Positions 8,225 through 50,140 of a stretch of 64,000 bases of DNA are shown here, piece by piece. Below the pieces are notes generated by a model. That model was given only the letters and a program-made list of their open reading frames with translations, searched no databases and was not told the DNA's origin. The translations under genes were made by a program, and so were the position numbers. The DNA is from a virus: UHGV virus genome UHGV-0180032; one strand, written 5' to 3'. Position 1 is the stretch's first letter. The number at the start of each line of letters is the position of its first letter.

Positions 8225-11200
8225 ATGGCAAAAGCGGTAAAGAAAATACGATTACATAATCTTAGACCATATACCGGTGATATCGGTGAAGGCGTTTTAC
8301 TTTTCTCCAAGGATGAGAAAGATTATAAGTTACCAGTCCGTGAGATCATTGCGGATATTGACACCGTACGTAATGCGGTGGCTGAAGCACAAACAGCAGC
8401 AACACAATCACAAGAAGCTGCAACGCAGGCTACACAAGCAAAGAATTTAGCAGAAACCGCAAAACAACAAACTGACACCGTTGCGGCGACGGTTGCTCAA
8501 CAAGCGCAAACTGTAACCGAAAAAGCAACTGAAGTCGGTACAAAACACACTGAAGTGTTAGCCGCGAAAACGGCGGTAGATACCCAGGTTGTGTCCGTTA
8601 ATGAGAAAGCGCAAGCGGTAGCGGCAAGTGAGGCCAACGTCACACTAGCAGAGACTGCCGTTACGAAGAAAGCAGAAGCCGTCGCCACACAAGCCGGTCA
8701 AGTCGAACAGTCGCTTACAGCAGTTAACGAAGCTGTCGCGTCGGTAGAGTCGTCAAAAGCCTCTGTAGAAGCTACAGCAACGCAAGTTACCACAGACAAA
8801 GAAACCGCAGAGAATGCGGCAACGCGTTCTGAGGCAGCCGCTAAGCGCGCAGAAGAAATCGCTGCAAAAGGTAACGTTGATGCATCAACGACCAGTAAAG
8901 GTATCGTTAAGCTTAATAATACCCTAAGCAGTGACTCTGTTACTGAAGCGGCTACGCCGTCAACGGTTAAGCAGTTAAATGAAGATTTGCAGTTAAAAGC
9001 AAACCGTCACAACCCAACATTTACTGGTACGGTAAAAGCACCAACTCCTGCTTCGGATTCTAACGACACGAGTGTCTCAACGACTGCATGGGTACGACAA
9101 GCGATTGCTGAATTAGTGGATTCTTCACCCGAGACGTTAGATACGTTATCAGAAATTGCAGCTGCGTTAGGGAACGATCCTAACTTTGCGACAACGATGA
9201 CGAACCAACTCGCGGGTAAGCAGCCGTTAAGTCCGTTACTGACAGCGATTGCCGCAGTCACCACCGCTGCAAACAAACTCCCTTACTTTACCGGTAGTAA
9301 TCAGGTAGGGTTAGCGGATTTCACCTCGACTGCGCGTGATTTGTTAGCGAAAGGGTCGACGACCGATATCATTAACTTCCTGGGTTTGAAAACCACCGTC
9401 GATAAAGCTGCGGGTGCTATGCAACGCAGTTCTAACGGTGCCGATATTCCCGACAAAGTCACCTTCGCGAAGAACATCGGGTTGTCAGCAGAGACGTACC
9501 TGAAGTACAACGGCGATATGGCGATAGACGCGGACCTTAATACCTTCGGTCCAGTCGAAGCGTCTATGGGTATTTGGTCGAAAGGCACATCTACAAACGC
9601 AACGATTGCAAAGAACTTCCCGGAAGAAAACGCAGTCGGTTATTTAGAGGTTTTTAGAGCAGGTAACTACGGCGGGAGTCAGCGTTTCACTGTACGTAAC
9701 GGTAACGTCTATACACGTCATCTTACTGCTTCATGGAATGGGACAAACGGCCCTTGGTCAGAATGGCGTAATGTTGCCGGTTCCGCCAGAACGTTGAACG
9801 AACAAAATAATCTGAATGACTTAGGCGGTGAACCCGCACTGGGTGTTTGGAGAAACAGTACAAGTACGTTAGCAACAGCTGCGCTGAATTATCCTGAGGA
9901 AGGTTCCTTTGCCCAGGGTGTATTAGAGGTCCTCAAAGGTGGTAACTACAGTTACACACAACGCTACACTACCCGTAGAGGTAATGTGTACGTTCGTTGT
10001 CTACAGGCCACGTGGGACGCTTCTAATCCGCAGTGGGAAGAATGGCGCTGTGTCGGTCATCAATCTGTCAGCGCATATTTCGAAGGCGATCTCGACACGT
10101 TAACTTCGCCTAACCGTTATAGCATTACCGACAAAGCGACTAACGTTCCTTTAATCGACGGCACTAAAATTATCGGTATCTTGGATGTCAGTCGTCGTTT
10201 TGATAACGTCAGTGTCGAACAAAAATTCACCTCGTTTGGTTCCGGTAGTAAAACCACAGGTCGCGTTTTCACTCGTGTATTCTCCGGCCAATCAAACGGT
10301 AAATGGAGTGAGTGGCGAGAGGTTTTCACCTCGTATTCACTTCCGTTAGTTTTAGGCATTGGTGGTGAAGCTGCTAAGGTTGACCCGTTAGACTGGCAAA
10401 CTTACGACTTCGTTCCTGGTCAGATGCTAACGACACCGTTGAACACCATGAAAAACATTCCTGCGGGAATGGATTGGGGTGTGATTGACGGTAACTTAGT
10501 TAACATCCTTGTCGGGCCGTCTGACGACACTGGTACCGGTCGGAGTATGTTGGTTTGGCGTAGCACGGTGTCTACTGCCAACTATCGCTTCTTTGCGGTA
10601 CGTGTCGCTGGTGAGAAGGGTAGCCGTACGATTACGCCACGTCAGATGCCTGTGTTGAACGCAGCGCACACCTGGGCAGAGAAACAGACCTTTGCAAAAG
10701 GGTTAGCAGGTGAGTTAACCGGCAATGCTTCAACCGCCACTAAGCTCCAGACTGCGCGTAGAATTGGCGGGGTCGCTTTCGACGGCAGCGGTGACATTAA
10801 CCTCCCCGGTGTTAACCAACAGGGTAATCAAAACACCACGGGTAACGCCGCGACAGCCACTAAACTTCAAACCGCCAGAAATATTAACGGTGTGAGGTTC
10901 GATGGCTCTGGAGACATCAATATCAACACCTTGGTAGGTCGTGGACGGGTTACCGCTCTGACCGGGTCGAACAAGGGTACACCTGGTATCCAGATGTACG
11001 AAGTTTACAATAATGGTTATCCAACCGCTTATGGTAACTTGCTGCACTTAGGTGGTGCTAGTGCCGTAGGCGAAGGTGAACTGTTAATCGGTTGGTCTGG
11101 CACCAGCGGTGCGCACGCGCCAGTTTTTATTCGTAGTCGCCGCGATACGGCTGACGCGCCGTGGTCAGACTGGGCACAAGTTTATACTGCCCGTGACAGT

Positions 11201-12850
11201 ATTCCTGGCGTAAATGCCACCGGTAATCAAGATACGACCGGAAACGCCGCTACCGCAACCAAATTGAAAACCGCTCGCAGAATCGGTGGTGTTACCTTTG
11301 ACGGTACTGGGGATATCAATTTACCGGGCGTAAACCAGCAAGGCAACCAGAACACGACAGGTAATGCTGCAACAGCGACTAAACTTCAGACTGCCCGAAG
11401 TATCGGTGGTGTGGCTTTTGATGGTACGAAAGACATCAGTTTACCTGGGGTAAACCAAACGGGGAATCAGTCAACTACGGGGAACGCTGCTACTGCAACG
11501 AAGTTGCAGACAGCGCGTACCATTAACGGTATCGAATTTGACGGTACTAAAAATATTGAACTGACCCCAAGAGCCATAGGCACGATTAACTCAACAACCA
11601 TGTCTTTTAATGGTGGTGCCGGATGGTTCAAGCTGGCAACTGTAACCATGCCACAAGCCAGTTCCGTGGTTTACATAAGCATGATTGGTGGTGCAGGGTA
11701 TAACGTTGGCTCCCCGCAACAAGCTGGTATCTCTGAGCTGGTCCTGCGTGCAGGAAATGGGAACCCAAAAGGTATTACTGGTGCTTTATGGCGACGGACC
11801 TCTGTTGCTTTTACTAATTTTGCATGGGTGAATACATCTGGTGACACCTATGACATTTATGTAGAAATAGGTAATTACGCAACAGGTGTTAATATCCAAT
11901 GGGATTATACAAGTGACGCCACAGTACAAATCTATACATCGCCAACTTATACATCAGATAAACCAGCTGGTCTGACTGATGGAACGGTATATGTCGTTTA
12001 CAGTTCACACATTAAACCTACTGCGAATGATGTTGGGGCGTTGCCATTATCCGGCGGCCAATTGAATGGAGCTTTGGGTATTGGAACCGCCAATGCTTTA
12101 GGTGGGAACTCCATAGTTTTAGGGGATAATGACACCGGCCTTAAGCAGAACGGGGATGGCGTTCTAGATGTTTACGCCAATAATGCTCACGTTTTACGCT
12201 TTACGAGTGGGGCTGTTCAAAGCAATAAACCTCTCAACGTTACTGGGGATATAAGAACCAATACTTGGGTTTATGCAAATAGATATTCTATTAACAGCAA
12301 CTCAGGTTCTTGGATTAGCATGAGAGACCATAACGTTATTTTTGGTCTTAATGCGGTAGGAACTAGTTCTGCTCAGGCTTTGTTAAGACAAGACCATGCT
12401 GATAGGAAATATTTTGTTGGTGGTTTAGGTAACAGTCAATTCGGCTTTTACATGATAAACAACTCACGTACTGATAATGGCACCGATGCTAATGCTTATT
12501 TGCAAAATGACGGTACTTGGGTTTGTGGTGGGAACGGTAACTTTAACGACGTTTATATACGTTCAGACGCCCGGCTGAAAAGTAATTTCTCTCCAATAAC
12601 TAATGCATTGGAGAAGGTAAAGAAATTGTCAGGTTTAATATACGACAAAAAGGAGAACTTTAAATCCACTAATGTTCATCGTGAGGCTGGCGTTGTAGCA
12701 CAGACCTTACAAAAAGTGTTACCTGAAGCAGTTTCTACTTATAAAGACGCTAATGGTGAGGACGTTTTGACGGTCTCTAATTCTGCTCAAATAGCTTTAC
12801 TTATTGAGGCAATAAAGGAGTTGGCGGAGATAATTGAGACCAAGTTATAA
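8225..12850 (+). CDS. long tail fibre protein with C-terminal intramolecular-chaperone (S74-like) domain
   Basis: 1541 aa; Ala/Thr/Gln-rich N-terminal region; five copies of a ~40-aa repeat; C-terminal SDARLKSNF...LIEAIKEL motif typical of auto-cleaving fibre chaperone domains. Confidence 0.9.
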   Translation: MAKAVKKIRLHNLRPYTGDIGEGVLLFSKDEKDYKLPVREIIADIDTVRNAVAEAQTAATQSQEAATQATQAKNLAETAKQQTDTVAATVAQQAQTVTEKATEVGTKHTEVLAAKTAVDTQVVSVNEKAQAVAASEANVTLAETAVTKKAEAVATQAGQVEQSLTAVNEAVASVESSKASVEATATQVTTDKETAENAATRSEAAAKRAEEIAAKGNVDASTTSKGIVKLNNTLSSDSVTEAATPSTVKQLNEDLQLKANRHNPTFTGTVKAPTPASDSNDTSVSTTAWVRQAIAELVDSSPETLDTLSEIAAALGNDPNFATTMTNQLAGKQPLSPLLTAIAAVTTAANKLPYFTGSNQVGLADFTSTARDLLAKGSTTDIINFLGLKTTVDKAAGAMQRSSNGADIPDKVTFAKNIGLSAETYLKYNGDMAIDADLNTFGPVEASMGIWSKGTSTNATIAKNFPEENAVGYLEVFRAGNYGGSQRFTVRNGNVYTRHLTASWNGTNGPWSEWRNVAGSARTLNEQNNLNDLGGEPALGVWRNSTSTLATAALNYPEEGSFAQGVLEVLKGGNYSYTQRYTTRRGNVYVRCLQATWDASNPQWEEWRCVGHQSVSAYFEGDLDTLTSPNRYSITDKATNVPLIDGTKIIGILDVSRRFDNVSVEQKFTSFGSGSKTTGRVFTRVFSGQSNGKWSEWREVFTSYSLPLVLGIGGEAAKVDPLDWQTYDFVPGQMLTTPLNTMKNIPAGMDWGVIDGNLVNILVGPSDDTGTGRSMLVWRSTVSTANYRFFAVRVAGEKGSRTITPRQMPVLNAAHTWAEKQTFAKGLAGELTGNASTATKLQTARRIGGVAFDGSGDINLPGVNQQGNQNTTGNAATATKLQTARNINGVRFDGSGDININTLVGRGRVTALTGSNKGTPGIQMYEVYNNGYPTAYGNLLHLGGASAVGEGELLIGWSGTSGAHAPVFIRSRRDTADAPWSDWAQVYTARDSIPGVNATGNQDTTGNAATATKLKTARRIGGVTFDGTGDINLPGVNQQGNQNTTGNAATATKLQTARSIGGVAFDGTKDISLPGVNQTGNQSTTGNAATATKLQTARTINGIEFDGTKNIELTPRAIGTINSTTMSFNGGAGWFKLATVTMPQASSVVYISMIGGAGYNVGSPQQAGISELVLRAGNGNPKGITGALWRRTSVAFTNFAWVNTSGDTYDIYVEIGNYATGVNIQWDYTSDATVQIYTSPTYTSDKPAGLTDGTVYVVYSSHIKPTANDVGALPLSGGQLNGALGIGTANALGGNSIVLGDNDTGLKQNGDGVLDVYANNAHVLRFTSGAVQSNKPLNVTGDIRTNTWVYANRYSINSNSGSWISMRDHNVIFGLNAVGTSSAQALLRQDHADRKYFVGGLGNSQFGFYMINNSRTDNGTDANAYLQNDGTWVCGGNGNFNDVYIRSDARLKSNFSPITNALEKVKKLSGLIYDKKENFKSTNVHREAGVVAQTLQKVLPEAVSTYKDANGEDVLTVSNSAQIALLIEAIKELAEIIETKL
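10722..11575 (+). repeat. phage tail-fibre repeats (about five copies) inside the fibre CDS
   Basis: Repeated unit GNQ(N/D)TTGNAATATKLQTAR-I-G(V)-FDG-GDI-LPGVNQ seen directly in the translation. Confidence 0.6.
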
Positions 12851-13705: not shown

Positions 13706-14218
13706 ATGGGGGTAGCGTCAGGATGGGTCGGTTCTTCGGCCAAGAGTGAAACGGGCGAACAATGGATGAGCGCTGCTGGTAGTAAATTAGGATTGGGTAG
13801 ACCTTTTATGATGAGCCAAATGGTAGGCAGGTCTGTAGGTTGCAAAATAGCAACAGCTTATTATAAAACGTCAAATACTGATAAGGTAGAGAACTGGGGT
13901 GCTGTCGGAGCCGATTGGCCGTTGGTAGATAAGAACAAAGGAACGCTTTCTGGTGCCTCGAACTGTGGCTTAGGACGTTTAGTGGGGATCGTACTTACGC
14001 AAGCTCACTACGTTGCCGGTGTTCCGCCTACTGCCGCTTTATATATTTCTGGCGGACGGGCGAGTAACATTACGGTGACGGTTGGTGGTGTTTCGCAAGC
14101 ATTTACTTACAATAGTGTTACTAACGGTTTTCACTATTATTGGCAAGGAACACCGAGTTCGGCCTTTATAGCGGCAATGAAGAAGACGGGTGTTACACAA
14201 GATTTGAAAATTAGCTAA
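13706..14218 (+). CDS. second gp38-like protein: conserved N-terminal module with a different, non-glycine-rich C-terminal domain
   Basis: N-terminus GWVGSSAKSETGEQWMS aligns with 12898 product; remainder unrelated. Confidence 0.6.
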   Translation: MGVASGWVGSSAKSETGEQWMSAAGSKLGLGRPFMMSQMVGRSVGCKIATAYYKTSNTDKVENWGAVGADWPLVDKNKGTLSGASNCGLGRLVGIVLTQAHYVAGVPPTAALYISGGRASNITVTVGGVSQAFTYNSVTNGFHYYWQGTPSSAFIAAMKKTGVTQDLKIS

Positions 14219-14303
14219 CTAATTGGGGTAAAACGATAACCAAAATTAGTAAAATAAGAATTCGTAATTCAATAATTTTTTATAGAAAGGTTGATTTATT
14301 AGA

Positions 14304-14354
14304 ATCGGGGGGGGGGTGAAATGTTTTTAGCCAACATTTTATGTCTCCCCAATC
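14304..14354 (+). promoter_or_regulatory. G-tract hairpin element, copy 2
   Basis: atc-G10-...-CCCC-aatc with an internal sub-hairpin; just upstream of SD/GTG of 14372 gene. Confidence 0.35.
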
Positions 14355-14371
14355 ATAGGAGGTAACCATAC

Positions 14372-14884
14372 GTGGAACAATTCACGCCTGATTTGTCCTT
14401 AACTTCACTTAACATGGTTATTTCACTGGTTAACCATGACCTCCAGCTCGACTTGCAAGAGAACGAGGTTGAAGTCAGCGACGTAAAGACCAGTGACGAA
14501 ATGGATCGTGACACCACTGCTGTTGTAAAGATAAAACGTCCCGGTAACAGAACGTTACAAATCTATTACAACCGTTTAACCGCAGAACGTTGGTTAAACC
14601 AGCAACCTATTCTGGTACAAGTAGCTGGAGAGGGGTTTAACACACACGATTTAATCGACGGGATTAACGCAGCCTGTGGCAGTAACCTGCAACCTGAAGA
14701 TCTTCAGGACGATTCATTTACAGTAGGAAAAGACGCTGTAACGTTACAGGTATCACCTAACTCCCTAAGTTATAAAGGCCAATTCTCTGTTTTGGTTTTT
14801 GGTAACGGTGAAGAAGCCGCAGTAACAAAAGATGACAACCTAATCGTTACCGCAGATAATCGCGTCTTAACCTTTGGTGGTTAA
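14372..14884 (+). CDS. hypothetical protein, paralog of 4151..4714 product
   Basis: Track ORF, GTG start after aggagg SD; shared PDLSLTS...LVNHD...YY(D/N)RL...CG(T/S)NLQPEDL. Confidence 0.55.
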   Translation: MEQFTPDLSLTSLNMVISLVNHDLQLDLQENEVEVSDVKTSDEMDRDTTAVVKIKRPGNRTLQIYYNRLTAERWLNQQPILVQVAGEGFNTHDLIDGINAACGSNLQPEDLQDDSFTVGKDAVTLQVSPNSLSYKGQFSVLVFGNGEEAAVTKDDNLIVTADNRVLTFGG

Positions 14885-14981
14885 TAGTGGCTGACACGAG
14901 CTACCATCACTTTCAGAAGACATCACTATTAAGCGTCTTACAGGGACAACGCTTTCTCAGAACGGAATGAAATAAATATTA

Positions 14982-15029
14982 GGTAGTAGGGGCTAAGCCC
15001 CTACTACCTTTCTTTTTTTTTATTTTTTC
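14982..15029 (+). terminator. intrinsic terminator
   Basis: Stem ggtagtagggg/cccctactacc, loop ctaag, followed by long T-run. Confidence 0.65.
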
Positions 15030-15074
15030 TCAGATATATATTACCTAGAGGAGAGCGAAATTTACATTCGCTCT
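15028..15074 (+). promoter_or_regulatory. conserved promoter-like box plus stem-loop, copy A
   Basis: tctcagatatatattacctagaggagag followed by hairpin agagcg/cgctct; near-identical box at 18331 and 54431. Confidence 0.45.
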
Positions 15075-15182
15075 ATTAGTTATAGCCGAAAGGAGGATTA
15101 GTTCTATCACCCGCATTATCTGTTCTGGTGAATTGGGCGAAGATAAATTAGTTGAAGATTACATTAAGAAGGAAGGGCAATT

Positions 15183-15626
15183 ATGAAACCAAATACTACT
15201 AACGGCATTATGCTACTTTGTGATTCTGAAACGTTAGCAAATCGTATTCGTGGTTTGATGGAAGTACGTTGGAAGCAAAAGGTTCGCGTGGACTATGCTG
15301 CCCCGTTTGTTCACGTTACTTGGTTACCAGAAGCTGACGATTTTAGAGAAAAAATAACCACGAGAAGAATTAAAGATTGGTTATCAGCAATCATTAATAA
15401 ACAGATTACCGTTATCAATTTCCAACTTTTCGGTACCGCTGAAGAACATGAAATCTTGAAACAGTGTTTAAGAGCATTGGCTCTTTCCTTCTCTGTTCGT
15501 GGAAACTGTTACACGACTTATTTTATCGGTTCGCTTGAACTGTTTAAGAATACGCTAATGCTTCAGCTAAAAGACGACTACAAACTTTTAGATAAAATCG
15601 ATTTCGAATTCCCAGCAATGATTTAA
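15183..15626 (+). CDS. hypothetical protein (147 aa)
   Basis: Track ORF; SD aaggaagg. Confidence 0.6.
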   Translation: MKPNTTNGIMLLCDSETLANRIRGLMEVRWKQKVRVDYAAPFVHVTWLPEADDFREKITTRRIKDWLSAIINKQITVINFQLFGTAEEHEILKQCLRALALSFSVRGNCYTTYFIGSLELFKNTLMLQLKDDYKLLDKIDFEFPAMI

Positions 15627-15636
15627 GGAGTATAAA

Positions 15637-16164
15637 ATGCATCAGAAATTAATGACTAGTAACAAAGTTCTCCGTTTTAACCAACGTGAGTTAGAAATTG
15701 GCGGAGAACGAATTGGTCGAGTTCGTAATCTTTTAACTGTGTTAGGTTTGGTCGGCGTTACATTTACATACACCGGTAAAATTCTTTACGCGACCTGGGC
15801 TTCATGCGAAAGTGACGCTACCTACGATAAAATTCTCGATGGTATTAAAGACGGCTCGGTTTATTGTAATGTTTTCCGTGGCGTTTCGTACATCGCTGGC
15901 GATAAGTTAATGGATAAACTGAAAGCCAAATACGGAGACGGTATTATCACCACCATCTTCTTTGGTGGCGATATGCTAATCGTAACGAAAAAGGAAATTA
16001 GTCTGGAACTTCAAAGTGATGTAAACTACGAACTTCAGATTGGTCCACAATTTAGCTGTAGAATTAATGTTGTTGTCGGTAAAGATGATTTCTACGATGA
16101 AGACGAGTCAGTAGAAATTCGAAAAATTGCGAGTCGCTACATGGATTCTATTTTCCGTAGTTAA
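15637..16164 (+). CDS. hypothetical protein (175 aa)
   Basis: Track ORF; SD aaggag. Confidence 0.6.
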   Translation: MHQKLMTSNKVLRFNQRELEIGGERIGRVRNLLTVLGLVGVTFTYTGKILYATWASCESDATYDKILDGIKDGSVYCNVFRGVSYIAGDKLMDKLKAKYGDGIITTIFFGGDMLIVTKKEISLELQSDVNYELQIGPQFSCRINVVVGKDDFYDEDESVEIRKIASRYMDSIFRS

Positions 16165-16220
16165 TAATCAAAAAGGGCTGTAAGTCCCCCACATAGAGTA
16201 AATCCCTAAAGGAGCATTAA

Positions 16221-16736
16221 ATGTCTGTAACAATCAACATGAATCTTTATACCAAACGTGAACGTCAAATCTTGGCTAATCAGCCAGGCGTTACTACTAT
16301 TGACGGTAAACCTATCGACCCATTAAAAGTTGTCGTCGCACACAACTGTCTCGAGAAAGACTGGGACATCATGTATTTCCGTTGCCGTTCTGTCGCCAAC
16401 GCACTTACCCAGCTCTCGAATTATCATCCTGGCCCAGTATTAAAAGACTGGGTTTGGTTAGTCCCTAAAACACCTTCAGCGATTGAGTATCCGTCGGGTA
16501 TGGTCTATATTCGTCCTGTCGCTTATCCAGAACGTTTAAAAGAATATCTGGAGGTTATCTGGGACCGACCTCGTAAAGAGCTGGTGACGATTATCCGTTT
16601 ACTTCAAATGTGCGATATCCCCAATGTTTCGAATCTGAAACTTACGTCTCGCGATGTTAACCAGGCTTACTGGGAACTGGAGTGGACTGAAATGAAATTC
16701 GAAAACACTAACCGCATCTTCTTGCACCGGGGGTAA
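16221..16736 (+). CDS. hypothetical protein (171 aa)
   Basis: Track ORF; SD aaggag. Confidence 0.6.
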   Translation: MSVTINMNLYTKRERQILANQPGVTTIDGKPIDPLKVVVAHNCLEKDWDIMYFRCRSVANALTQLSNYHPGPVLKDWVWLVPKTPSAIEYPSGMVYIRPVAYPERLKEYLEVIWDRPRKELVTIIRLLQMCDIPNVSNLKLTSRDVNQAYWELEWTEMKFENTNRIFLHRG

Positions 16737-16738
16737 AA

Positions 16739-17020
16739 ATGTTAGATTGGTTGTTGGGATTAATTAACTCACGTCAACAGGAGCTTTATAAAGAAAACAT
16801 GCGATTACGGCAGGAGCTTAGTAACAATCGCCAAACCAAACGCCAATTAATTCGGATGGTAAAACAACAGGCACGTTGTATACGTGATATCGATTATCAG
16901 TATCACCGCCTGAATACCTTAGACCCAACAACAAAAGCTTTAGGCAGTACGATTGGACACGCACGGAAAGTCAGTCACGATGCGTTAGTTCGAATCGACA
17001 CAATAGAAGAGAAACTGTGA
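16739..17020 (+). CDS. hypothetical coiled-coil protein (93 aa)
   Basis: Track ORF; heptad-like Leu/Gln/Arg-rich sequence. Confidence 0.5.
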   Translation: MLDWLLGLINSRQQELYKENMRLRQELSNNRQTKRQLIRMVKQQARCIRDIDYQYHRLNTLDPTTKALGSTIGHARKVSHDALVRIDTIEEKL

Positions 17021-17025
17021 TTAGC

Positions 17026-17050
17026 TCTCCCTCGGGATTACCGAGGGAGA
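17026..17050 (+). promoter_or_regulatory. intergenic stem-loop (not followed by T-run)
   Basis: Perfect 10-bp stem tctccctcgg/ccgagggaga, loop gatta. Confidence 0.35.
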
Positions 17051-17063
17051 TAAGGCGATTTAC

Positions 17064-17453
17064 ATGATGCGTTTATCTTACATTAAAAGACGTTTGTTAC
17101 TAAAAGCTCAACTGTATGCTAACGGGAAAGTTAAAAACTGGCTATGCGGTGAAAGGGTACAACGTATCGTCAGTGAGGGCGACTGGTATACGGAAATCGT
17201 GGTTTCCCCAAATGGCGAGCTTATAAACGTTACCATTCGTGACGTTTTAGTTAAGATTGGCAGGGAAGGTGGTCTGCTGTTTGAATCGGAAACTACAAAA
17301 GTCGTTGCTAAACAATTGAAAGAAGGTCGGGTTATATTCAATATCACCGCCCAGAAATATTACGACCATTTATTCGAATGTCAACGAGCATTAGACAGAA
17401 TGACCCGTGAGATGCGAAGAATGCACATCACGGAGATCACTATAGGGGTTTAA
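17064..17453 (+). CDS. hypothetical protein (129 aa)
   Basis: Track ORF. Confidence 0.55.
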   Translation: MMRLSYIKRRLLLKAQLYANGKVKNWLCGERVQRIVSEGDWYTEIVVSPNGELINVTIRDVLVKIGREGGLLFESETTKVVAKQLKEGRVIFNITAQKYYDHLFECQRALDRMTREMRRMHITEITIGV

Positions 17454-17764
17454 TGATGGAAAGTAAAATCACGAACACAACGACACCTGAGAACATTGTC
17501 AACTACATTCTCAGTGGCGGATTGTTAGAAGACAACAAAGAAACGTGTGATAAACTCGTTTCTCAACTTCTGCCGATTCGTTCAGAATACTGCGAAGTCG
17601 TTATCCTGGGTTCGGAGTATTGCGTACGTTCTTACTGTCGTCGTTTCGAAGCCTTACGCGTTCCACGTACGTTAGGTGGTGTGATACTCTTGGTCTCTAA
17701 CTTTCACAATGCACACGTTCGTGTTGCAACCTGGATTGCCAACGGTGGTGACAATGGTTTTTAA
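17453..17764 (+). CDS. hypothetical protein (103 aa)
   Basis: Track ORF; start overlaps upstream stop. Confidence 0.55.
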   Translation: MMESKITNTTTPENIVNYILSGGLLEDNKETCDKLVSQLLPIRSEYCEVVILGSEYCVRSYCRRFEALRVPRTLGGVILLVSNFHNAHVRVATWIANGGDNGF

Positions 17765-18050
17765 ACTAATTCGGCTGTTTAAACGTAAGAAATGTCCTGT
17801 CTGCGAAGTCAATGAAAAGGTTATTGCTAAGCAAGATGAATTAATTAAAGTACAGGAAAAATCGCTCAGGGAACAGCTAGAGCTTTATTACAAGCTTTGT
17901 GCTATTACCGAGTACATCTGCGAGGAGAAATTGCCAAAAGAAGCTGGTTTTTTAATACTAGAGAAAGCCACAAAAGATTGTCGTGCTCAGGTCGATATGT
18001 ATAAACAAGTTTTACGGCGAGAATTATGGGGGAAAATCAATGAAGCGTGA
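17754..18050 (+). CDS. hypothetical protein with CPVCE motif
   Basis: Track ORF 17709..18050 trimmed to ATG 17754 (ggtggtga SD-like). Confidence 0.5.
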   Translation: MVFKLIRLFKRKKCPVCEVNEKVIAKQDELIKVQEKSLREQLELYYKLCAITEYICEEKLPKEAGFLILEKATKDCRAQVDMYKQVLRRELWGKINEA

Positions 18051-18321
18051 AACAGTTGTATTTCGTAGCAACGGTGATGTGGTTTTGTATCGTGGTAAGA
18101 AACGTATTCGTACGTTAGAATACCGTGAAGCAAAACGTTTTGTTGAAGAGTGTGCATGGTTAATGCATTACGAAGGGAACTACCGAGCTATTTTAGAAGC
18201 ACCGCGTCTAGAACGTGCGGTTGCGCAGATGGCAATAGGTAATCCTAAGAACTGTTACCTGGCACGTAAGCCAAAATACCTACAGCGGCTTTCGTTAGGC
18301 AGCTTTATTGCTGGGTTTTAA
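18040..18321 (+). CDS. hypothetical protein
   Basis: Track ORF 17983..18321 trimmed to ATG 18040 (gggga SD, overlaps upstream stop). Confidence 0.5.
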   Translation: MKRETVVFRSNGDVVLYRGKKRIRTLEYREAKRFVEECAWLMHYEGNYRAILEAPRLERAVAQMAIGNPKNCYLARKPKYLQRLSLGSFIAGF

Positions 18322-18330
18322 TAAAAATAA

Positions 18331-18373
18331 TTTCAGATATATATTACCTAGGTGAGAGTTCAGCTACTCTCAC
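18331..18373 (+). promoter_or_regulatory. conserved promoter-like box plus stem-loop, copy B
   Basis: tttcagatatatattacctaggtgagag with hairpin gtgagagt/actctcac; upstream of 18404 gene. Confidence 0.45.
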
Positions 18374-18403
18374 TTAACCAAAACCATTTTAGGAGCATAT
18401 GCC

Positions 18404-18898
18404 ATGAACTTCACAAGACTTGATTACACTAACGAATTAGTTGACAAAGAAAAATACAAATTCACTGTTGACTTGGGTTACGGATTACTGGACGTAGAAA
18501 AAGATGTTCTGCACAAAGAATTCCGTGAGCAGTTCGGTGCTCTGTTCTGCGCAGGTTTCCGCAGAAACACTATCGATATCGGTTATAGCGCAACACCACA
18601 TACCGACGAAGAAATGTTTAAGCTGGTAACACAGATTATCGGAACGCGTGGAGCTAATCGTCTTAATTATTCCAACGAACTTGTTTCGAAAGAGCATTAC
18701 AAGTTCACCGTTAGACTACCTGTACACCTCACAGAAGAAGATAAGAACATCCTCTATAAAGCCCTTCAAACCGAATTCGGTAAAACGCTCAAAGTAGGGT
18801 TCCGTAATCGTAGTATCGATATCGGAATTAGTGTGGATGTGTGTAGTGACGATGACCTTTACGAATTAGTTTCGGAAGTTATCGGAAATCATCTCTAA
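18404..18898 (+). CDS. hypothetical protein built from two tandem ~80-aa repeats
   Basis: Translation shows RLDYTNELVDKEKYKFTV...IIG and RLNYSNELVSKEHYKFTV...VIG. Confidence 0.6.
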   Translation: MNFTRLDYTNELVDKEKYKFTVDLGYGLLDVEKDVLHKEFREQFGALFCAGFRRNTIDIGYSATPHTDEEMFKLVTQIIGTRGANRLNYSNELVSKEHYKFTVRLPVHLTEEDKNILYKALQTEFGKTLKVGFRNRSIDIGISVDVCSDDDLYELVSEVIGNHL

Positions 18899-18946
18899 AC
18901 CTAAATTAACTCATTAACACTTCGACTTGTAAATAAGGAATAGAAT

Positions 18947-19420
18947 ATGTTTAGCTTAGAATTCAACAACAACGTTCATGTCGCTTTCCATTCAGTAGAA
19001 AAAACCTATAAAACTAAAGATCTGTTTACTGGCAGAAGCGATGCTTTTTCGCTGATTAAGAATGGATGGAGAAAAAGCAAAGAGCTGAAACGTGATTCAA
19101 ACCTTTACATTATTGAACGTTTAACTGTAACCGACGATCTTGTCACTGCACGTTATGACTTTGTTGTAATGGACGATTTCATCCCGTTAGACAAACTGGT
19201 TATCTTGGCTGACAATGGGGAACGCTACGAGGCGGGCGAGAACGGTGAACGTTCATTTACTAATGACGGTAAACTAAAAGTTCGCCATTCTGTAATGGCA
19301 GTTTGCTACGATGGTGAATGGCTAGGATCTCTGAATAAAGGATTGGATTTGATTGACGCCGATGATTTAGAAAATTTCGCCGATGTTTTCTCCAGCTATC
19401 TGTTTGAATATAAGTGGTGA
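18947..19420 (+). CDS. hypothetical protein (157 aa)
   Basis: Track ORF; SD aaggaa. Confidence 0.55.
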   Translation: MFSLEFNNNVHVAFHSVEKTYKTKDLFTGRSDAFSLIKNGWRKSKELKRDSNLYIIERLTVTDDLVTARYDFVVMDDFIPLDKLVILADNGERYEAGENGERSFTNDGKLKVRHSVMAVCYDGEWLGSLNKGLDLIDADDLENFADVFSSYLFEYKW

Positions 19421-19425
19421 GTTCG

Positions 19426-19857
19426 ATGAGAAAAGAACTAAAATCAGAGTTACGTGATTACATTCGTAAATACCCAGCCAGTATTCCGGTACTGGCTTCA
19501 CTCTCTTTATCGGGTATGGACCTTAATACCTTAACGGTAGAAAAATTCCACGAAGTGGTGAAGTCGTCGTATCAAATTGTTACCGATATGTCAGTGCGGA
19601 AACGTGCTGACTACCCAGACGGTGATTTCGGTACAGAGATGTTCACGGACTACGCAGTTGCGTATCTGATGGGACGTCACTTTATCGATAAACTCAATAC
19701 GGCTGTAGAAGGAGAAACCGTTACGGAAATTGTCAATGCTTGGCAACAACGTATTGTGAGTGACGCTTACTGTCGTCAAGCCTTAAAGAAAATGTCGGCA
19801 GTAGCATTAACCAATGACCAACGTGCTTTAGAGTTCCTTAAGCACAACTACGAATAA
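19426..19857 (+). CDS. hypothetical protein, paralog of 21121..21552 product
   Basis: Track ORF 19414..19857 trimmed to ATG 19426; shared LRDYIRKYP...YP-G-(D/E)-G motifs with 21121 product. Confidence 0.55.
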   Translation: MRKELKSELRDYIRKYPASIPVLASLSLSGMDLNTLTVEKFHEVVKSSYQIVTDMSVRKRADYPDGDFGTEMFTDYAVAYLMGRHFIDKLNTAVEGETVTEIVNAWQQRIVSDAYCRQALKKMSAVALTNDQRALEFLKHNYE

Positions 19858-19878
19858 TTTACCAAAAGGAAAATTGAC

Positions 19879-21051
19879 ATGTATAATATCGAGATTACCT
19901 CACTCGTTAAAACTGAAATCCGTCCGGTTCCTGAAGGACAGTTACTCGATCGACTTTATCGTATATTCCTGGATAAAGGTGTGCATTTCCGTGTAGAACA
20001 GGCCAATGTTGAAAGCATAGTGTTCTACTGGACTGACAACAGTGAGTACGTTTGGTGGAGTATTGCGGTAGAGATCGGTGAGTTACTCAATCCGGTAGCC
20101 ACGACCGCCAAGGTAGAAACGACCGAGACCGAACAACCGAAAGTCGAAGAACAGCAGTGGCCGTACACCAGCGCCGACAACCCGCTCGTCTATCGGTATG
20201 GTGCCGAAACGAACGAGAAAATTAAAGAAACATTAGAGGCTCTCTATCCCGATTATTTAACCATCAGTCAACAATGCGACGTGTTAGTTATCTGGATGAA
20301 TGATCTCGAACCCAAGCTCATTAAAGCTATTCGCATCACCGTTGCACTGATCGTCAAAGACGCCGTTCGCCTTATTTCGTTTGAAGGTATCGGTCGACGT
20401 GACGCGGATGATTTCATGCGTGATGTCGTTCACGAACACAAGGAGAAAATTCTTCGGTCTAATTATGTTGGTGACACTCTAACTGTGCTTGTTGATAATG
20501 ACCCCGTTATTATTAATCAGCTGAACATCCGTATGCGTAAGTTAACAAAGAAAATTTTTCTTAAAGGGGAGCAATCGCTTGAAGAGTCCAAAGTGTCTAA
20601 AGTCTTTACTTACACTGGTCCAGATGCCAAAGCGATTAACGATACTTTGGCAGCTTTCTATTCTAGCAAAGTAGAGACTAAACTCGAGGGCGAAGAACTC
20701 ACCATTAAATGGAAATGGTGGGACATTGCTCTTGAAGAAGAAATTCATAGTCTTATTAAAGAGATTGTTGACAACCGTCTACGTCTTCTAACGATCACTA
20801 CTATCGGGGGAGAGGATGCCGATGCGTTTATAAGCGGGGTTCTTCGTGCGTATCCTGAGAAAGTCCGTCAATGGACTTACAATGACAATACACTTATCAT
20901 CCTGCTCAACTATGAACCTGGCCTTATTGGGAAATTGAAGGATCGTCTACGTGATCTGTGGTACAAACGATTTCTTAAGGATGGGTCGAAAGAGCTCATT
21001 AAAGGATTGTTTTCTGATTGCAACTGTCCTATATGTCAGAAGCATCGCTAA
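19879..21051 (+). CDS. hypothetical protein (390 aa) with internal duplication and C-terminal CNCPICQ
   Basis: Track ORF; two related segments (GIGRRDADDFMRDV... and IGGEDADAFISGV...). Confidence 0.6.
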   Translation: MYNIEITSLVKTEIRPVPEGQLLDRLYRIFLDKGVHFRVEQANVESIVFYWTDNSEYVWWSIAVEIGELLNPVATTAKVETTETEQPKVEEQQWPYTSADNPLVYRYGAETNEKIKETLEALYPDYLTISQQCDVLVIWMNDLEPKLIKAIRITVALIVKDAVRLISFEGIGRRDADDFMRDVVHEHKEKILRSNYVGDTLTVLVDNDPVIINQLNIRMRKLTKKIFLKGEQSLEESKVSKVFTYTGPDAKAINDTLAAFYSSKVETKLEGEELTIKWKWWDIALEEEIHSLIKEIVDNRLRLLTITTIGGEDADAFISGVLRAYPEKVRQWTYNDNTLIILLNYEPGLIGKLKDRLRDLWYKRFLKDGSKELIKGLFSDCNCPICQKHR

Positions 21052-21068
21052 TTAACTAAATTCGTACA

Positions 21069-21100
21069 AGGGGTGGTAAACCACCCCTCTATTATTGTAT
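21069..21100 (+). terminator. terminator-like hairpin
   Basis: Stem aggggtgg/ccacccct, loop taaa, then T-rich tail. Confidence 0.5.
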
Positions 21101-21120
21101 TTACCTAAAGGAGTATTAAA

Positions 21121-21552
21121 ATGTTTTTCGTATTAAAAGATGATATTCGTAACTACATTCGTAACAATCCGATTGCTCTAGGCGTTTTAGCAGGTTTCTG
21201 TCGTCCAAATACTGACTTCGATTTAGTTAAGTTAGAAGAATATCAGGAAATTGTGAATACTAACTACATGCACATCTGTAGCTGGGGTAAACGTCCCCGT
21301 GAAGAGTACCCTGTAGGTGAGTTAGGTGACACCATGCACCGTGACCAGAATCTGATGCACGAATTCGTTGAATACACACTGGAAAATCTTAACTATCCAC
21401 TCCTGGTCGACACTGTACCAGAAATGGTTGACGAATGGTTAAAACGTGTTTATAGCGATCCTACCGCCAACAAGTTACTGAGCCAGATGTCACAAACTTC
21501 TCGTGACATCGACACTCGTACCTTGATGTACTTAGCACATAACGTTCGCTAA
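21121..21552 (+). CDS. hypothetical protein, paralog of 19426..19857 product
   Basis: Track ORF; SD aaggag. Confidence 0.55.
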   Translation: MFFVLKDDIRNYIRNNPIALGVLAGFCRPNTDFDLVKLEEYQEIVNTNYMHICSWGKRPREEYPVGELGDTMHRDQNLMHEFVEYTLENLNYPLLVDTVPEMVDEWLKRVYSDPTANKLLSQMSQTSRDIDTRTLMYLAHNVR

Positions 21553-21559
21553 CCTCTTT

Positions 21560-21610
21560 CCGCTATAGGCTTCGGTCTATAGCGGAATTAATTTTCTTTC
21601 CCTTTTCTTT
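21560..21610 (+). terminator. terminator-like hairpin
   Basis: Stem ccgctatag/ctatagcgg followed by T-rich region. Confidence 0.45.
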
Positions 21611-21718
21611 TTTGTTATTTTGACACCACTTTACTTACGCCCTACCCGACTATTCCTATGCTGGCTGAGGGATGTAAAACGACCTCTTAAACCTTTTTAC
21701 TTACTGTGAGTTAACGCG

Positions 21719-22567
21719 ATGTCTCTTACGTCAAAACAGAAACTGCTAAAACTCATCAACACTGAAAACAATATTAGTCCACCGTTGACTTTCAGTGATG
21801 TTGAAATCGGGGAACCTACCGGTACTGGGGTTGATACCCAGGTGGTTCTGACCTCTAAACTTAAAGGCGATGAGTCTACTACTTTAACCGTGACTTACCA
21901 CCGTCGTAATTTACCTGACTACCTAACCGGTGAGTTGGTATTCGGTAACGACAGTGTGGTAACCGCATCCGATTTGCTTAATGCGATTAACGCAAAATAC
22001 AACCTAAATATTTTACCCTCGGATATCGTTGACGCAAAAGTTGAAGGTGAAACCCATCAGCTTACGGCTAACGAGAAATCTTACGAGTGGTGCGGTGTAG
22101 TAACGCTTACGCTGCGTGATCCTATTGACCTGACCGAACTGTTACCGGTTACTCAATTAGAAAATCTGGTAGAGTATCCGTCCACGAAGAAAGGTAACGC
22201 GGCGGTTTATTCTCACCCGATTGATTTCACCGCAGAAAAAGATTACCTTGACCCGATTACTATCAACGACACTGTAGACTTAGTAGAATTAGCTACTAAA
22301 CTGGATGGTGTGGTTGACGAGAAATGGGTAAGCGTACCTAAGAACGCTGCTTACAACCTGTACGGTGCGAAAGTTATTTACGATGGCCCAACCTCAGGCT
22401 ACGAAGGCGCAAATACGAAATTCACTCGTGTGTTGGTGCTAACACTCAGCCCGCTGTGTTCTAACCTGACCGGTAACCTGTTAATTCACTTTAACGGTAC
22501 CGATCGTCCGAAGTCGAAGATTGAATTAGCACAGACTAATCCGGTCTTACCGGGATTCTTAGATTAA
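21719..22567 (+). CDS. hypothetical protein (282 aa), distant member of the YYDRL-type paralog family
   Basis: Track ORF; contains TYHRRNL...LNAINAKY...LPSD similar to family motif. Confidence 0.55.
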   Translation: MSLTSKQKLLKLINTENNISPPLTFSDVEIGEPTGTGVDTQVVLTSKLKGDESTTLTVTYHRRNLPDYLTGELVFGNDSVVTASDLLNAINAKYNLNILPSDIVDAKVEGETHQLTANEKSYEWCGVVTLTLRDPIDLTELLPVTQLENLVEYPSTKKGNAAVYSHPIDFTAEKDYLDPITINDTVDLVELATKLDGVVDEKWVSVPKNAAYNLYGAKVIYDGPTSGYEGANTKFTRVLVLTLSPLCSNLTGNLLIHFNGTDRPKSKIELAQTNPVLPGFLD

Positions 22568-25080: not shown

Positions 25081-25115
25081 TACCCTCCTGCTAAGCAGGA
25101 GGGTATTTATTATTC
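25081..25115. terminator. bidirectional terminator between convergent genes
   Basis: Stem taccctcctgc/gcaggagggta with T-rich flanks on both strands. Confidence 0.6.
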
Positions 25116-25589: not shown

Positions 25590-25859
25590 AAACTCACCCT
25601 TATTAAAATTAAGAAAAAATAATTTTTTCAGGTTAGCGCTTACTGCCAACCGTCATATCTATATTTTAGGAAATGTCTAAAATAACATTCTTATGCAATC
25701 CACCCCTACCACTAACGAGGTAAAAAAAGATGGCTAAAGCCTTCAAACAACAGCTCAATTCGTCTGGCTTCTCAAGACCTGATCGGTGCCAAAGCTTACG
25801 AACAAGCCGGTAGCCTCGATCTGGAAAACTCCGTCATCGTAACCAAACTGAACGAAGAA

Positions 25860-26691: not shown

Positions 26692-26729
26692 TCGCTAAGT
26701 CAACTACTATAACAAAAAATAATAAGTTT

Positions 26730-26762
26730 ACCTACCTCCTTTACGGAGGTAGGTATTTTTTT
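26730..26762. terminator. bidirectional terminator
   Basis: Stem acctacctcc/ggaggtaggt, loop tttac, T-runs on both strands. Confidence 0.65.
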
Positions 26763-33558: not shown

Positions 33559-36500
33559 TTAAGATGTAAACATAAGATTGAACTGGAGTTTGTCGATATC
33601 GCGAGTTTCTGCCGGATTCACGGCATCGTACGCGGTCGCTACGTAAACGGTTAGCGTACCGTTCGCGTAAGACGATTTCACCGGTGGGTTAGTTCCGGAC
33701 TGACCATCTCGCACAATGAGTGTAGGTTCACTTGGGAGATTGTCAAACTGACCCTTAACCGCTTTATATACCAAACCCGATTGCGCAGCCAGTTCAGTGT
33801 CCGTAAAGACAAAGAACGGTGTGTCGATATCAGCCTGTTTGATTGTAGTACCAGACTCGACGTCAATCAACTGTACCGCCCCAAACTTCGTACGATAACT
33901 TCCATACTCGTTCTTCGGAATAACGAACGTGACATGAACACGAACCTCCTCGGCGGGTTTAAACCCACTGTGCTCTTTTTCCAGGTACTGGTTGGCGGTT
34001 AACGTTACCGTTTGTTCAGTCATCGTACCACCGGCCTGGTTTATTGCATACCGAGCTTCAACAATACCGGTTGGTGCAGCAAGTCGCAGTTTCAGAGCAC
34101 GATTCGCCGTTCCTGGATTACCTGGCACCTGAACGCGCAAACTCAATGTTAGGTAAGCATTCGTTCCGGTAGTCGGTTTCGTATACGCACCAATCCATTT
34201 CATGTTCGCAGACGCTGCCTGCGTGTTCTCAGAAGCAGTGGCTGTCGCAATGTTAGCAGCTACCGCTTTCTGCCAGAATTGGTCAGCGCAGTTCTCATAC
34301 GCTACCCTGGCCACGCTCTTATAACCCGAATACGTTTCCTGAATTGGTAACTTAGGACGCGTCGTAATGCCAGACAGTGAACCCCATTTCTGACCGTCAA
34401 CATACCCTTCACCTTTTGACGCAGACGCCGTAGGTGCTTTAACAGGCTTGTTAACCAGCGTTAATAGAGGACCCGTCTTTCTGTCAAACGCTGCTGCAAC
34501 ATCATGTTGGTCGATAATCGCTGCGTGGTCTTCCAGTTCTTTCACACGGCCCAAGCGTTTTACTTTGTCGATACGGATATCCGTAATACGGTTGGAATCA
34601 GTGGTTACTGTCCCGACGAACAGTCTCGTTGAAGTATCAGCTAACTGCTCCAAACCGATACGGTATTGCGCAGTAGAACCCGACACCTCAGCGTGCACGT
34701 AGAACGTCTGGTTAGCGTGGTTAGACGGGAATTCGCTGCTTAAGTCCACAGACCACGTTGGGAGCGTGTAACTGCTGCTACCGAAGTCTAATTTGACTTC
34801 TTCCGTCAAATATAGAATCCAGCCTTCTGCTGTCTCCACACCGGCAATAATAACAGCCTGACCTTCGGTTGAGAACGTCGTGTCGTTAACAAACTCTGCG
34901 GCTGTATACGCGTTACCTGAACAGAAAACACGGTCAGCTTTAGAGTAAATCAACGCCATCTTGTCCCAATCACCGGCACCCATAAAGCAGCCTGATTCTG
35001 GTCTATGTGCAGGGGCCATCTGTCGTAACTGTGATTTACCTGCAACGCGTGTCCAACCTGAACCAGGGTCGAAGGTATATTTCGCAGCGTAGCCCAGGGC
35101 GTTTAAGTCCCCGATATTTCGGGTAGTTAACGTATAAGGTAGCCAGATACCGAAGTTAGTTCCATCCACAGATGCAAAAATAGGCTGTCCCACGCGCCGC
35201 GTTTTACCACCCCCTTCTTCCCTCAAAGACTGATAACTTAAACCATAATCGAGGTCTAAGAACCAGTCCACCAACTTAAAGGTAGCGGAGTTGAAACGTA
35301 AGTAGCCGTTCTCTTTAGATGGGCTCACCATGAAGTAATAGATGTCCAGAATTCGACGTCCGTTACTTGAGGTTTTCATGCACGAAACTTGCAACAAGTC
35401 AAATTCGCACACGGTGTTGATACCCAACATCCAAAGAGCAAACAATGCATTACCGGTTTGATGGGCAGCACTAATACGTTCGTTCGCGTATCCGTTCGCT
35501 TCACCGGAAGGCGCACCGTCGACGATCATCCGAATCATTTTCTGCCGATCGGCTTCTTCTAACGTTAAACGTTCGGAGGACAACGCGAAATTACCGTAGA
35601 TGTTGCGATACGGGAACGTTTCTGCTTTGGTCAAATACCAACCGTTTAACTGTCCATGACGCTCCTCAGGGATCATACACGCAGCCATACAGCTAAGCTG
35701 CTCGTAAAGCGTCGCATCAACTTCACGACGGTTGTTGTTCGGACCGTACCCACTATACCCAGAAACATCGTAAGGTTTGTTCGGATCAACTTCCACTTCG
35801 ATCGTGTAACGGTTACGAGGGTTCGATAACCAGACCTTATTCGAACCACCAATCCCTACTGGATAAGACAAACCGATGGTGTAAATGGAGCCACGGCCTT
35901 TATCCCAGGTAAACGTTCCTTCGCCCGAGGTGTTGTTTGGGTTATCGTAACGCAGATAATCGAAAAGCTCTCTGCCTTGTGTACTCTTAATAGAAACATT
36001 AGGCATTTGGTCCGCATCGGCAATTTGCCAACAGGAAAGCATCATTCCTGTACCGTTGGGTTTAGCATACGTCGCGAAACAACGGTTGTTTGCCTGGCCA
36101 CCACCCCACTTACGATTGGTTCCTACAGTTGAACCATCTGCGAACGAGAGTGTAGTAGTAGCATCAGCCTTGATGGGGAAGCGTTCGCGGCCTTCTAACG
36201 TAACCTTGCCCGTCAACGTATCGATTGTAAAACTTGTTGCCCATTGAAGGAAATTAATCGTCGTACCGTCGGCCGCTGCAAACCACACGGTAGGCATATG
36301 GTTCACACGAATCACGCTATCGCGCACAGCACACGCGTGGTTACATTCTGGACCGTGAACAAAGTTACGCCCGATCGTCCATTTAGCACGACCCTCCGGT
36401 GTGAGATATGTAAAGAATTGACCCGTTTGCGACTCTTCGGTTTTCTGACCAATACGCAAGCAGAGGTTATCTCCGAATTGTCCCATCTCGCCGGTTAGAG

Positions 36501-38745: not shown

Positions 38746-38839
38746 CGTAAAGACTCCTACTTTTAAATAAAATGGATACCCCTCCCCATTACAGGGAGGG
38801 GTTACCTACGGACACACAACTGCCCGCAGGCAGCCTGTC

Positions 38840-43024: not shown

Positions 43025-43034
43025 AAAATTCTCC

Positions 43035-50113: not shown

Positions 50114-50140
50114 TAGGTCGTTCCTTAGATCGGAAATGTA

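Follow-up and report, generated by a model that had tools for sequence, protein, structure and literature searches.

Which polymerase would read a nearly invariant AT-rich box that stands four times in front of gene blocks of an uncultivated jumbo phage, and what would be the role of the stem-loop into which each copy runs? This question is raised by a stretch of 64,000 nucleotides (nt) of the virus genome UHGV-0180032, the whole of which is called the window here. A preliminary description of this DNA had noticed a box of about 28 nt that is repeated at least four times, always in plus orientation and upstream of plus-strand gene blocks. We suggest that, by analogy with phages related to phiKZ, the four cassettes, nearly identical signals of some 45 nt, are very probably early promoters read by a virion-packaged multisubunit RNA polymerase (vRNAP). 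The overall explanation, namely vRNAP early promoters that each carry a 5'-terminal and probably stabilising mRNA hairpin, rests on the same kind of analogy and is in our view likely.

The number and the placement of the copies were borne out by each of the scans. The pattern TCAGATATATATTACYYAGGWGAG, with up to three mismatches allowed, has four matches in the window, all of them intergenic and on the plus strand; they begin at 15030 (copy A, two mismatches), 18333 (copy B, none), 50142 (copy C, one) and 54434 (copy D, none). None lies inside a coding region and all four are found 50-132 nt upstream of blocks of plus-strand open reading frames (ORFs), while 100 dinucleotide-preserving shuffles gave 0.00 matches. 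A Hamming scan of both strands returned four sites with 0-2 mismatches, nothing at 3-7 mismatches and a background that starts at 8. An nhmmer profile made from 28 non-redundant instances of the box in related phages found the same four sites with E-values from 4e-13 to 3e-8, with the next best match at E = 7.9, and even the loose pattern [AT]AT[AT]TTA[CT]-N6-G[AG], applied to both strands, matches these four sites only. The possible fifth copy that had been proposed at 25654-25670 is absent from the Hamming, profile and loose-pattern results and is rejected. Two weak profile matches at 21101 and 56772 were rejected as promoters and represent the ribosome-binding context TTTACCTAAAGGAG. This wording occurs at 21100-21113 and 56772-56785 and also at 19858 and 51243; with up to two mismatches it has five matches against 0.94 expected, one of which overlaps box A, and the same leader wording is present in related phages.

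The box as such is real but its conserved part is longer than the 28 nt first described. Over the 28 instances it extends from about -35 to +6 of the predicted start and reads gATTAAAAAtaATtTCAGATATATATTACYTAGGT-GAGAG, some positions being fixed beforehand by the search patterns used to collect the instances. Part of it is an A-rich stretch (-34 to -23), and many positions of TTCAG (-22 to -18) and gATTAAAAA (-35 to -27) carry 1-2 bits. The core TATATTAC is present in three of the four copies and is replaced by the variant TATTTTAC in the copy at 50142. A G follows the core after six further bases in 4/4 copies of the window, 12/12 copies of Salmonella phage SPN3US and 7/7 sites of phiKZ.

Relation to the early promoters of phiKZ-type phages

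The window is identical to a part of the IMG/VR contig 3300045988_095954 (151.6 kb). Its large virion proteins share 41-50% identity with those of SPN3US and of Erwinia jumbo phages, and its gene order (tail protein, radical SAM genes, three giant paralogous virion proteins, baseplate protein, SMC/SbcC-like protein) matches the region 100-172 kb of SPN3US. Judged from these similarities the phage is an SPN3US-like, phiKZ-related jumbo phage. Several genes for RNA polymerase (RNAP) subunits, beta as well as beta', are found in SPN3US, and its virion RNAP is taken from the literature only. Uncultivated relatives with 85-95% nucleotide identity to the window possess orthologous boxes, and the same relatives encode an RNAP subunit of 1400 amino acids (aa) that is 76-77% identical to the SPN3US subunit. 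The segment of SPN3US that is syntenic to the window (100-172 kb) contains no RNAP gene.

When positions 14000-22000 of the window were compared by megablast with 50,697 phage records, the only match, of about 40-60 nt, was box B together with its hairpin, and it was obtained with 44 records of SPN3US-like and Erwinia jumbo phages. Exact-pattern scans of IMG/VR located the box in SPN3US, phiEaH2, Huxley and others, as well as in a dozen or more jumbo contigs of 205-246 kb; a scan with the bare 14-mer CAGATATATATTAC gave mostly chance matches in unrelated contigs, from which only the jumbo-contig matches were kept. The complete SPN3US genome contains six strict copies, one near-strict copy and about five copies of a variant class, TCAGATAGATATTATCTnnGTGAG, and all of these, strict and variant, are located on the plus strand upstream of genes. 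The strict copies are found at 56292, 65411, 94237, 113984, 165685 and 223275. In front of one operon, which includes an orthologue (same PHROG) of the phiKZ non-virion RNAP (nvRNAP) subunit gp55, early in phiKZ, there is a variant box. A chimallin promoter in SPN3US is not claimed, as the 617-aa protein of this phage has no detectable similarity to phiKZ chimallin in BLASTP and belongs to a different PHROG; orthology is shown only for the neighbouring RNAP subunit.

The looser class TCAGATAGATATTATCTnnGTGAG was recorded in SPN3US (records L039-L043) at record positions 4425, 15612, 72682, 92538, 109891 and 191600, and in two further records (L004:2574 and L013:2614). It fits the published consensus of the phages OBP and N1M2 better than the strict box does, and most of its copies have a hairpin near +1 as well. 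The window itself has one partial match (aaATAGATATTATCATTAGG) at 62701-62721, between the ORFs 62213-62710 and 62784-63497. This class may represent a weaker or differently timed class of promoters.

The nature of the box is indicated by phages whose early promoters were characterised. In the window the core and its spacing, TATATTAC-N6-G, are identical to the core of the phiKZ early promoter. The first 50 kb of phiKZ contain seven copies of TATATTAC, all on the plus strand, upstream of genes and followed by N6-G, and one of them lies upstream of PHIKZ054, a gene with the early-promoter motif at its primary start site (PMC8244752). Early promoters of the Bacillus phage AR9, with mapped start sites, follow AAATATATATTAT-N6-G+1 (PMC5312081), and the window core is a near match to the mapped AR9 early promoter TATATTAT-N6-G+1. 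Transcription in phiKZ and phiR1-37 starts 6 nt past the AT-rich element (PMC5312081). Position for position the box is also compatible with TTTCARRYAKATATTATYWAAGTGWA, the consensus published for predicted early promoters of OBP and N1M2 (PMC7058600), and its conservation around -10, -20 and -30 agrees with the descriptions given for phiKZ and 201phi2-1. Downstream of the boxes of the window the genes are small, and for most of them no family is known, as is also reported of early genes in such phages. The rule TATATTA(C/T)-N6-G+1 of AR9 and phiKZ puts the start at the G seven bases after the core, and we therefore infer transcription starts at 15051, 18354, 50163 and 54455. The preliminary description had found the conserved part, -10-like and AT-rich without a conserved -35, to resemble a promoter specific to the phage; this assignment is supported and can now be refined to an early promoter of the phiKZ type.

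Ceyssens reportedly attributed the early promoters of phiKZ to the virion RNAP in 2014. The same attribution is made by Wicke 2021 (PMC8244752) and Putzeys 2024 (PMC10914365), and early promoters of the AR9/phiKZ type are ascribed to this polymerase in general (PMC5312081, PMC7598289) because early transcription depends neither on host RNAP nor on protein synthesis. As of 2017 the vRNAP of these phages was unpurified (PMC5312081).

A host polymerase would be the obvious competitor. TATATT could then be the -10 element of a sigma70 promoter and the A-rich stretch its UP element, so that the whole would be a cassette similar to the promoter-stem-loop (PeSL) elements read by host RNAP. The sequence TTAATA-16-TATATT at 18318-18345 scores 9/12 in a simple sigma70 scan, the upstream region is A/T-rich, and the start would differ from the predicted one by not more than 1-2 nt. 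Against this, the 28 instances have neither a conserved -35 hexamer nor a TG extension, copy B alone passes the sigma70 scan, and the best conserved positions (TCAG, TAC, YTAGGTG) are not read by sigma70. Moreover, the same core occurs in the Pseudomonas phage phiKZ and in AR9, where early transcription is independent of host RNAP, and the lineage possesses its own RNAPs. We consider host promoters highly improbable.

It is also very unlikely that the box is a middle-class or continuously used promoter of the non-virion RNAP. Such a role would suit the small number of copies per genome, and 201phi2-1 provides examples in which the class of a promoter and the function of its genes disagree. The middle and late motifs of phiKZ-type phages are, however, short (a weak AT-rich element or TACT at about -22; TATG at +1) and unlike the box, which agrees with the extended early consensus at -10, -20 and -30.

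The hairpin at the predicted start

According to the preliminary description the 3' end of each box forms the 5' arm of a stem-loop with a variable loop. All four boxes of the window run into such a stem-loop, with energies between -8 and -20 kcal/mol, and covariation lends support to the linkage of box and hairpin. Over the 28 instances the hairpin starts at +1 in 17, at +2 in two and at +3 in four (23/28 at +1 to +3); given the predicted start, it begins at +1 to +3 in 6/6 strict SPN3US copies and in 4/4 copies of the window. The leader between predicted start and start codon shows a tight distribution with a median of 51 nt, and a GC-rich terminator is located just upstream in 12/28 instances. 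Scans of the whole window with Rfam (gathering thresholds) and for tRNAs gave no matches.

The hairpin is not a mere by-product of the conserved GAGAG, because swapping of arms between instances halves the stability: native arms have -5.1 kcal/mol and chimeric 5'/3' arms -2.6 kcal/mol, and 0/5000 permutations reach the native value. At +3 to +8 the Watson-Crick pairs are of several types. When 18 instances were aligned with MAFFT, RNAalifold predicted no hairpin, since variable loop lengths shift the 3' arms out of register, and the chimera and permutation test together with a covariance-model alignment were used instead. The covariance model was built from five instances of the same geometry and 53 matches were aligned to it. 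In this alignment, which was fitted to the model itself, 89.2% of the cells are paired (72.1 ± 1.5 in shuffles), both partners show compensatory changes in 7/8 pairs, and the score for covariation reaches 0.323 compared with 0.119; none of 500 shuffles reaches the observed values and slid controls remain at or below 0.052. The loops comprise 3 to 11 nt and show no conservation. Thirteen of the pairs are G-U, and in 19/28 instances the fold of the sense strand is better than that of the antisense strand (p = 0.04); both observations weakly favour a structure at the RNA level. From these data the hairpin is probably a 5'-terminal RNA structure; that its role is mRNA stabilisation, by analogy with bacterial messages, is a tentative proposal to which we give somewhat less than even credence.

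In E. coli, RppH and RNase E require single-stranded 5' ends and 5' structures stabilise mRNA (PMC3997798), so that a protective 5'-terminal stem-loop would be the simplest reading. In the mechanism we propose, the injected multisubunit virion RNAP would read the four boxes to transcribe the first phage genes. It would recognise the element from about -35 to +2 (the consensus given above as far as G(+1)A), with the core TATATTAC centred near -10, and start at the G seven bases past the core. The first 18-33 nt of each early mRNA would then fold into the hairpin, so that RppH and RNase E would find no single-stranded 5' end, and the first phage messages would be protected before phage countermeasures are made. 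The hairpin would be followed by a strong Shine-Dalgarno sequence within a leader of about 50 nt, and in about 40% of instances the upstream GC-rich terminator would insulate the unit.

Several points weigh against this explanation. SPN3US has 6-7 strict and about 5-6 variant copies compared with 32 early promoters in phiKZ, and the strict box may thus mark only a subset of the early units. TATATT could serve as a sigma70 -10 element as well, with nearly the same start site. Start site, timing and polymerase are all deduced by analogy, and no RNAP gene was seen in the window among the approximately 28 ORFs that were scanned against protein families. As for the hairpin, its covariation was measured on an alignment made with its own model, the asymmetry between sense and antisense is weak, and the stems are of modest stability, with a mean of -5 to -7 kcal/mol and a z of about -1.6 relative to shuffles. 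A clear hairpin is absent in 3-5 of the 28 instances, and the phiKZ early promoters with the same core (sites of the first 50 kb) show no consistent +1 hairpin. Because of this last result the hairpin would be a lineage-specific addition that is not required by the promoter class in general. The spread of the hairpin was also followed in OBP, where the published promoter consensus gave no clear matches in the first 50 kb.

The hairpin could alternatively be part of the initiation signal, either as an element of DNA or nascent RNA that the sigma-less vRNAP requires for melting, separation of the RNA-DNA hybrid or escape, or as an identity tag of early RNA for a phage factor to read; the assignment of the promoter would not change. 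Its 5' arm (G+1 A+2 G A G/T) indeed belongs to the conserved box, the register of the hairpin is locked to the promoter across distant jumbo phages, and the virion RNAP of N4 offers a precedent for hairpin promoters. The loops and distal stems vary freely, however, the G-U pairs and the better folding of the sense strand speak for RNA rather than for a DNA cruciform, and both the instances that lack a clear hairpin and the phiKZ promoters of the same core speak against a need for it at initiation. This possibility is therefore judged unlikely. A bolder version, namely that the +1 hairpin is obligatory for vRNAP-driven early expression in SPN3US-like phages, is a long shot. The hairpin might act like a cap, as an identity mark for handling, export from the early infection compartment or preferential translation, or it might be a nascent-RNA element for promoter clearance by a sigma-less RNAP. 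If true, it would be a lineage-specific extension of the phiKZ-type early promoter.

Finally, TTTTAC or TTTAT follows many of the 3' arms, and copies B and C have no strong upstream terminator, which would fit an attenuator or terminator close to the promoter, or an insulator that prevents read-through. The AU-rich stems are weak, though, and the U-tract is short and inconsistent (copy B is followed by ACTTAACC), whereas the genuine terminators of this genome are GC-rich with long T-runs. A terminator about 20 nt past every early start would moreover defeat expression, and an attenuator is thus scarcely probable.

The predicted early units of the window

The four cassettes and the gene blocks behind them are arranged as follows.

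14981-15009, plus strand: terminator-like GC-rich hairpin before copy A, 13 pairs (8 GC), followed by TTCTTTTTTT, T-run to about 15028
15015-15050, plus strand: predicted promoter copy A (-36 to -1), box 15030-15053, TATATTAC core 15037-15044, profile E = 8.9e-9
15051 and 15052-15074, plus strand: predicted start G of copy A and its hairpin, 8 bp stem, 7-nt loop, -10.6 kcal/mol
15183-18321, plus strand: operon A, eight small ORFs, most of them of no known family, leader 132 nt
18318-18353, plus strand: predicted promoter copy B (-36 to -1), box 18333-18356 with perfect consensus, TATATTAC core 18340-18347, E = 4.2e-13
18354 and 18354-18371, plus strand: predicted start G of copy B and its hairpin, GAGAGT-TCAGCT-ACTCTC, -8.4 kcal/mol
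18404-21088, plus strand: operon B, four ORFs (18404-21051) with a terminator-like hairpin at the end (21069-21088)
50127-50162, plus strand: predicted promoter copy C (-36 to -1), box 50142-50165, core TATTTTAC 50149-50156, E = 3.1e-8
50163 and 50165-50195, plus strand: predicted start G of copy C and its hairpin, GC-rich, 12 bp, -19.8 kcal/mol
50246-54375, plus strand: operon C, a 25-aa ORF and then five ORFs of unknown function, terminator 54380-54399
54380-54399, plus strand: terminator-like hairpin before copy D, 8 pairs (6 GC), followed by the T-run TTTTATTTTT
54419-54454, plus strand: predicted promoter copy D (-36 to -1), box 54434-54457, TATATTAC core 54441-54448, E = 4.3e-11
54455 and 54455-54474, plus strand: predicted start G of copy D and its hairpin, GAGAGTTA-AGAT-TAACTCTT, -8.2 kcal/mol
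54505-57297, plus strand: operon D, small ORFs of unknown function, terminator-like hairpin 57277-57297

Terminator-like hairpins are thus found upstream of the boxes at 15030 and 54434, in line with the intrinsic terminators that had been noticed just before two of the copies. The one at 14981-15009 closes the upstream block of tail genes directly before copy A. In copy A the spacer is the variant CTAGAG, and orthologues of this copy are present in the relatives L018 and L029. The leaders of copies B and D measure 50 nt each, to the ATG at 18404 and 54505, respectively, and copy D is also matched by the covariance model with 69.5 bits. The first ORF of operon D has a signal-peptide-like N-terminus. 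Copy C stands back to back with the minus-strand baseplate gene (49148-50113). The first ORF of operon C (50246-50323) has a good Shine-Dalgarno sequence and is separated by a gap of 76 nt (50324-50399) from a 279-aa ORF at 50400; it could represent a small leader peptide or what is left of a gene that was disrupted.

The unusually long leader of copy A (132 nt) is due to a deleted first gene that left a remnant. Comparison of positions 15075-15182 with L018:3590-4425 and L029:2500-2720 shows that its Shine-Dalgarno sequence and first 25 nt or so were kept, that the ATG became TTC and that the rest was deleted. This gene is intact in L018 and was lost separately in the window and in L029 by different deletions. 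Such events, and the mosaic nature of early blocks among near relatives, would fit a cassette that serves above all as a module of recombination or mobility, by which gene cassettes are shuffled in the way proposed for PeSLs. But at this one locus the deletion breakpoints are situated in leader and coding sequence and not in the box, flanking repeats and target duplications are missing, and the strict co-orientation with genes as well as the fixed distance of about 50 nt to the start codons point to expression. A recombination module is the explanation to which we attach the least credence of all.

As early promoters, the boxes would represent an operon map of an uncultivated jumbo phage, with 5' ends for four predicted early units and terminators for three of them. 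One core, TATATTA(C/T)-N6-G, is common to enterobacterial, Pseudomonas and Bacillus jumbo phages. The near-invariant signal of about 40 nt with its covarying +1 hairpin would be a handy substrate for vRNAP biochemistry in the cultivable relative SPN3US. If the hairpin governs stability or handling of early mRNA, this would help in the engineering of jumbo phages and in explaining how infection proceeds in its first minutes.

Some further features were recorded in the window. GC-rich hairpins with T-runs on both strands at 14981-15009, 25081-25105 and 26729-26755, all at borders of gene blocks, score as terminators in both directions and may be bidirectional terminators. Between 47000 and 64000, sigma70-like promoter matches are rarer than expected (14 versus 25.2 ± 5.5 in shuffles) and terminator-like sites commoner (25 versus 17.3); between 10000 and 29000 the sigma70-like count is as expected (33 versus 30.4). 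Three adjacent giant ORFs of 1728, 1394 and 1440 aa on the minus strand (33559-47357) each match the PHROG families of the others (7449, 8078, 7557). Their products appear to be structural proteins of the virion that are paralogous, and they correspond to the three large minus-strand genes at 145536-158671 of the SPN3US RefSeq record. A plus-strand ORF of 1541 aa (8225-12850) has many tail-fibre PHROG matches, among them domains that resemble the distal subunit of the T4 long tail fibre. Its BLAST rows against L029 break up across the gene, which may therefore be a host-range module of mosaic nature.

Comparison with known systems

The preliminary description had been reminded of the PeSL cassettes of T4-type phages. 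These are promoters with sigma70 consensus in T4-like phages, in which a G/C-rich stem-loop within or beside the -35/-10 region acts as terminator (PMC2839356), and they mediate recombination and formation of mini-circles (PMC2839356, PMC4122927). In contrast, the boxes of the window have no conserved -35, with copy B alone reaching 9/12 as a sigma70 promoter. Their hairpin is located downstream, from the predicted +1, and is AU-rich and weak (-5 to -10 kcal/mol), while separate GC-rich terminators stand upstream; in addition, the phage is SPN3US-like and not a T4-like phage with hyperplastic regions. On the grounds of sigma70 boxes, position and type of the stem-loop and T4-like setting, membership fails, and the resemblance to PeSLs is an analogy of layout. 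The hairpin promoters of the N4 vRNAP differ as well. There a DNA hairpin with conserved stem and loop lies upstream of the start and is read by a single-subunit vRNAP, whereas the hairpin described here is found downstream of the box, varies in loop and distal stem, and belongs to a lineage with multisubunit RNAP.

Similar in form are the stabilising 5' stem-loops of the E. coli mRNAs ompA and papA (PMC3997798), which are likewise defined by structure, with variable loops, and share the distance of 0-2 nt from the (here predicted) 5' end. Unlike them, the hairpins of the window are fused to a phage promoter, so that the first bases of the stem are also promoter bases, and their stabilising function is proposed by analogy.

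Among jumbo phages, the box corresponds by position to the consensus TTTCA-RRYAK-ATATTAY-YWARGTG-WA of OBP, N1M2 and 201phi2-1 (PMC7058600 Table 2; PMC11512511), and the variant box TCAGATAGATATTATCTAAGTGAG fits it better still. The published reports give a DNA motif only and no promoter hairpin: the words "hairpin" and "stem-loop" are absent from PMC7058600, and PMC11512511 uses both only for terminators and small RNAs. A text search of the literature for the motif string, with Lavysh 2016 (a possible listing of the SPN3US motif) outside its scope, found it only in PMC7058600. AR9 has the same AT-rich core except for the last base (C in the window, T in AR9), the same spacer of 6 nt and a G start, and protein synthesis is not needed for its early transcription (PMC5312081). 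AR9 differs in being a Bacillus phage with uracil-containing DNA for which no promoter hairpin is described, and the suggested relatedness comes from the motif alone.

The closest counterpart is phiKZ, which shares the TATATTAC core, the G seven bases on, a similar conservation at -10, -20 and -30, and the intergenic, co-oriented position before small early genes. In comparison with it, the box of the window is far longer and nearly invariant (about 24 contiguous bases), has flanks of its own (TCAGA..., YTAGGT) and is coupled to a +1 hairpin that is not consistent in phiKZ. We found no description of a hairpin at +1 in the literature consulted, the rest of the element being of an already known kind, and the element most likely belongs to the known early promoters of phiKZ-related jumbo phages, with the hairpin as an addition of this lineage.

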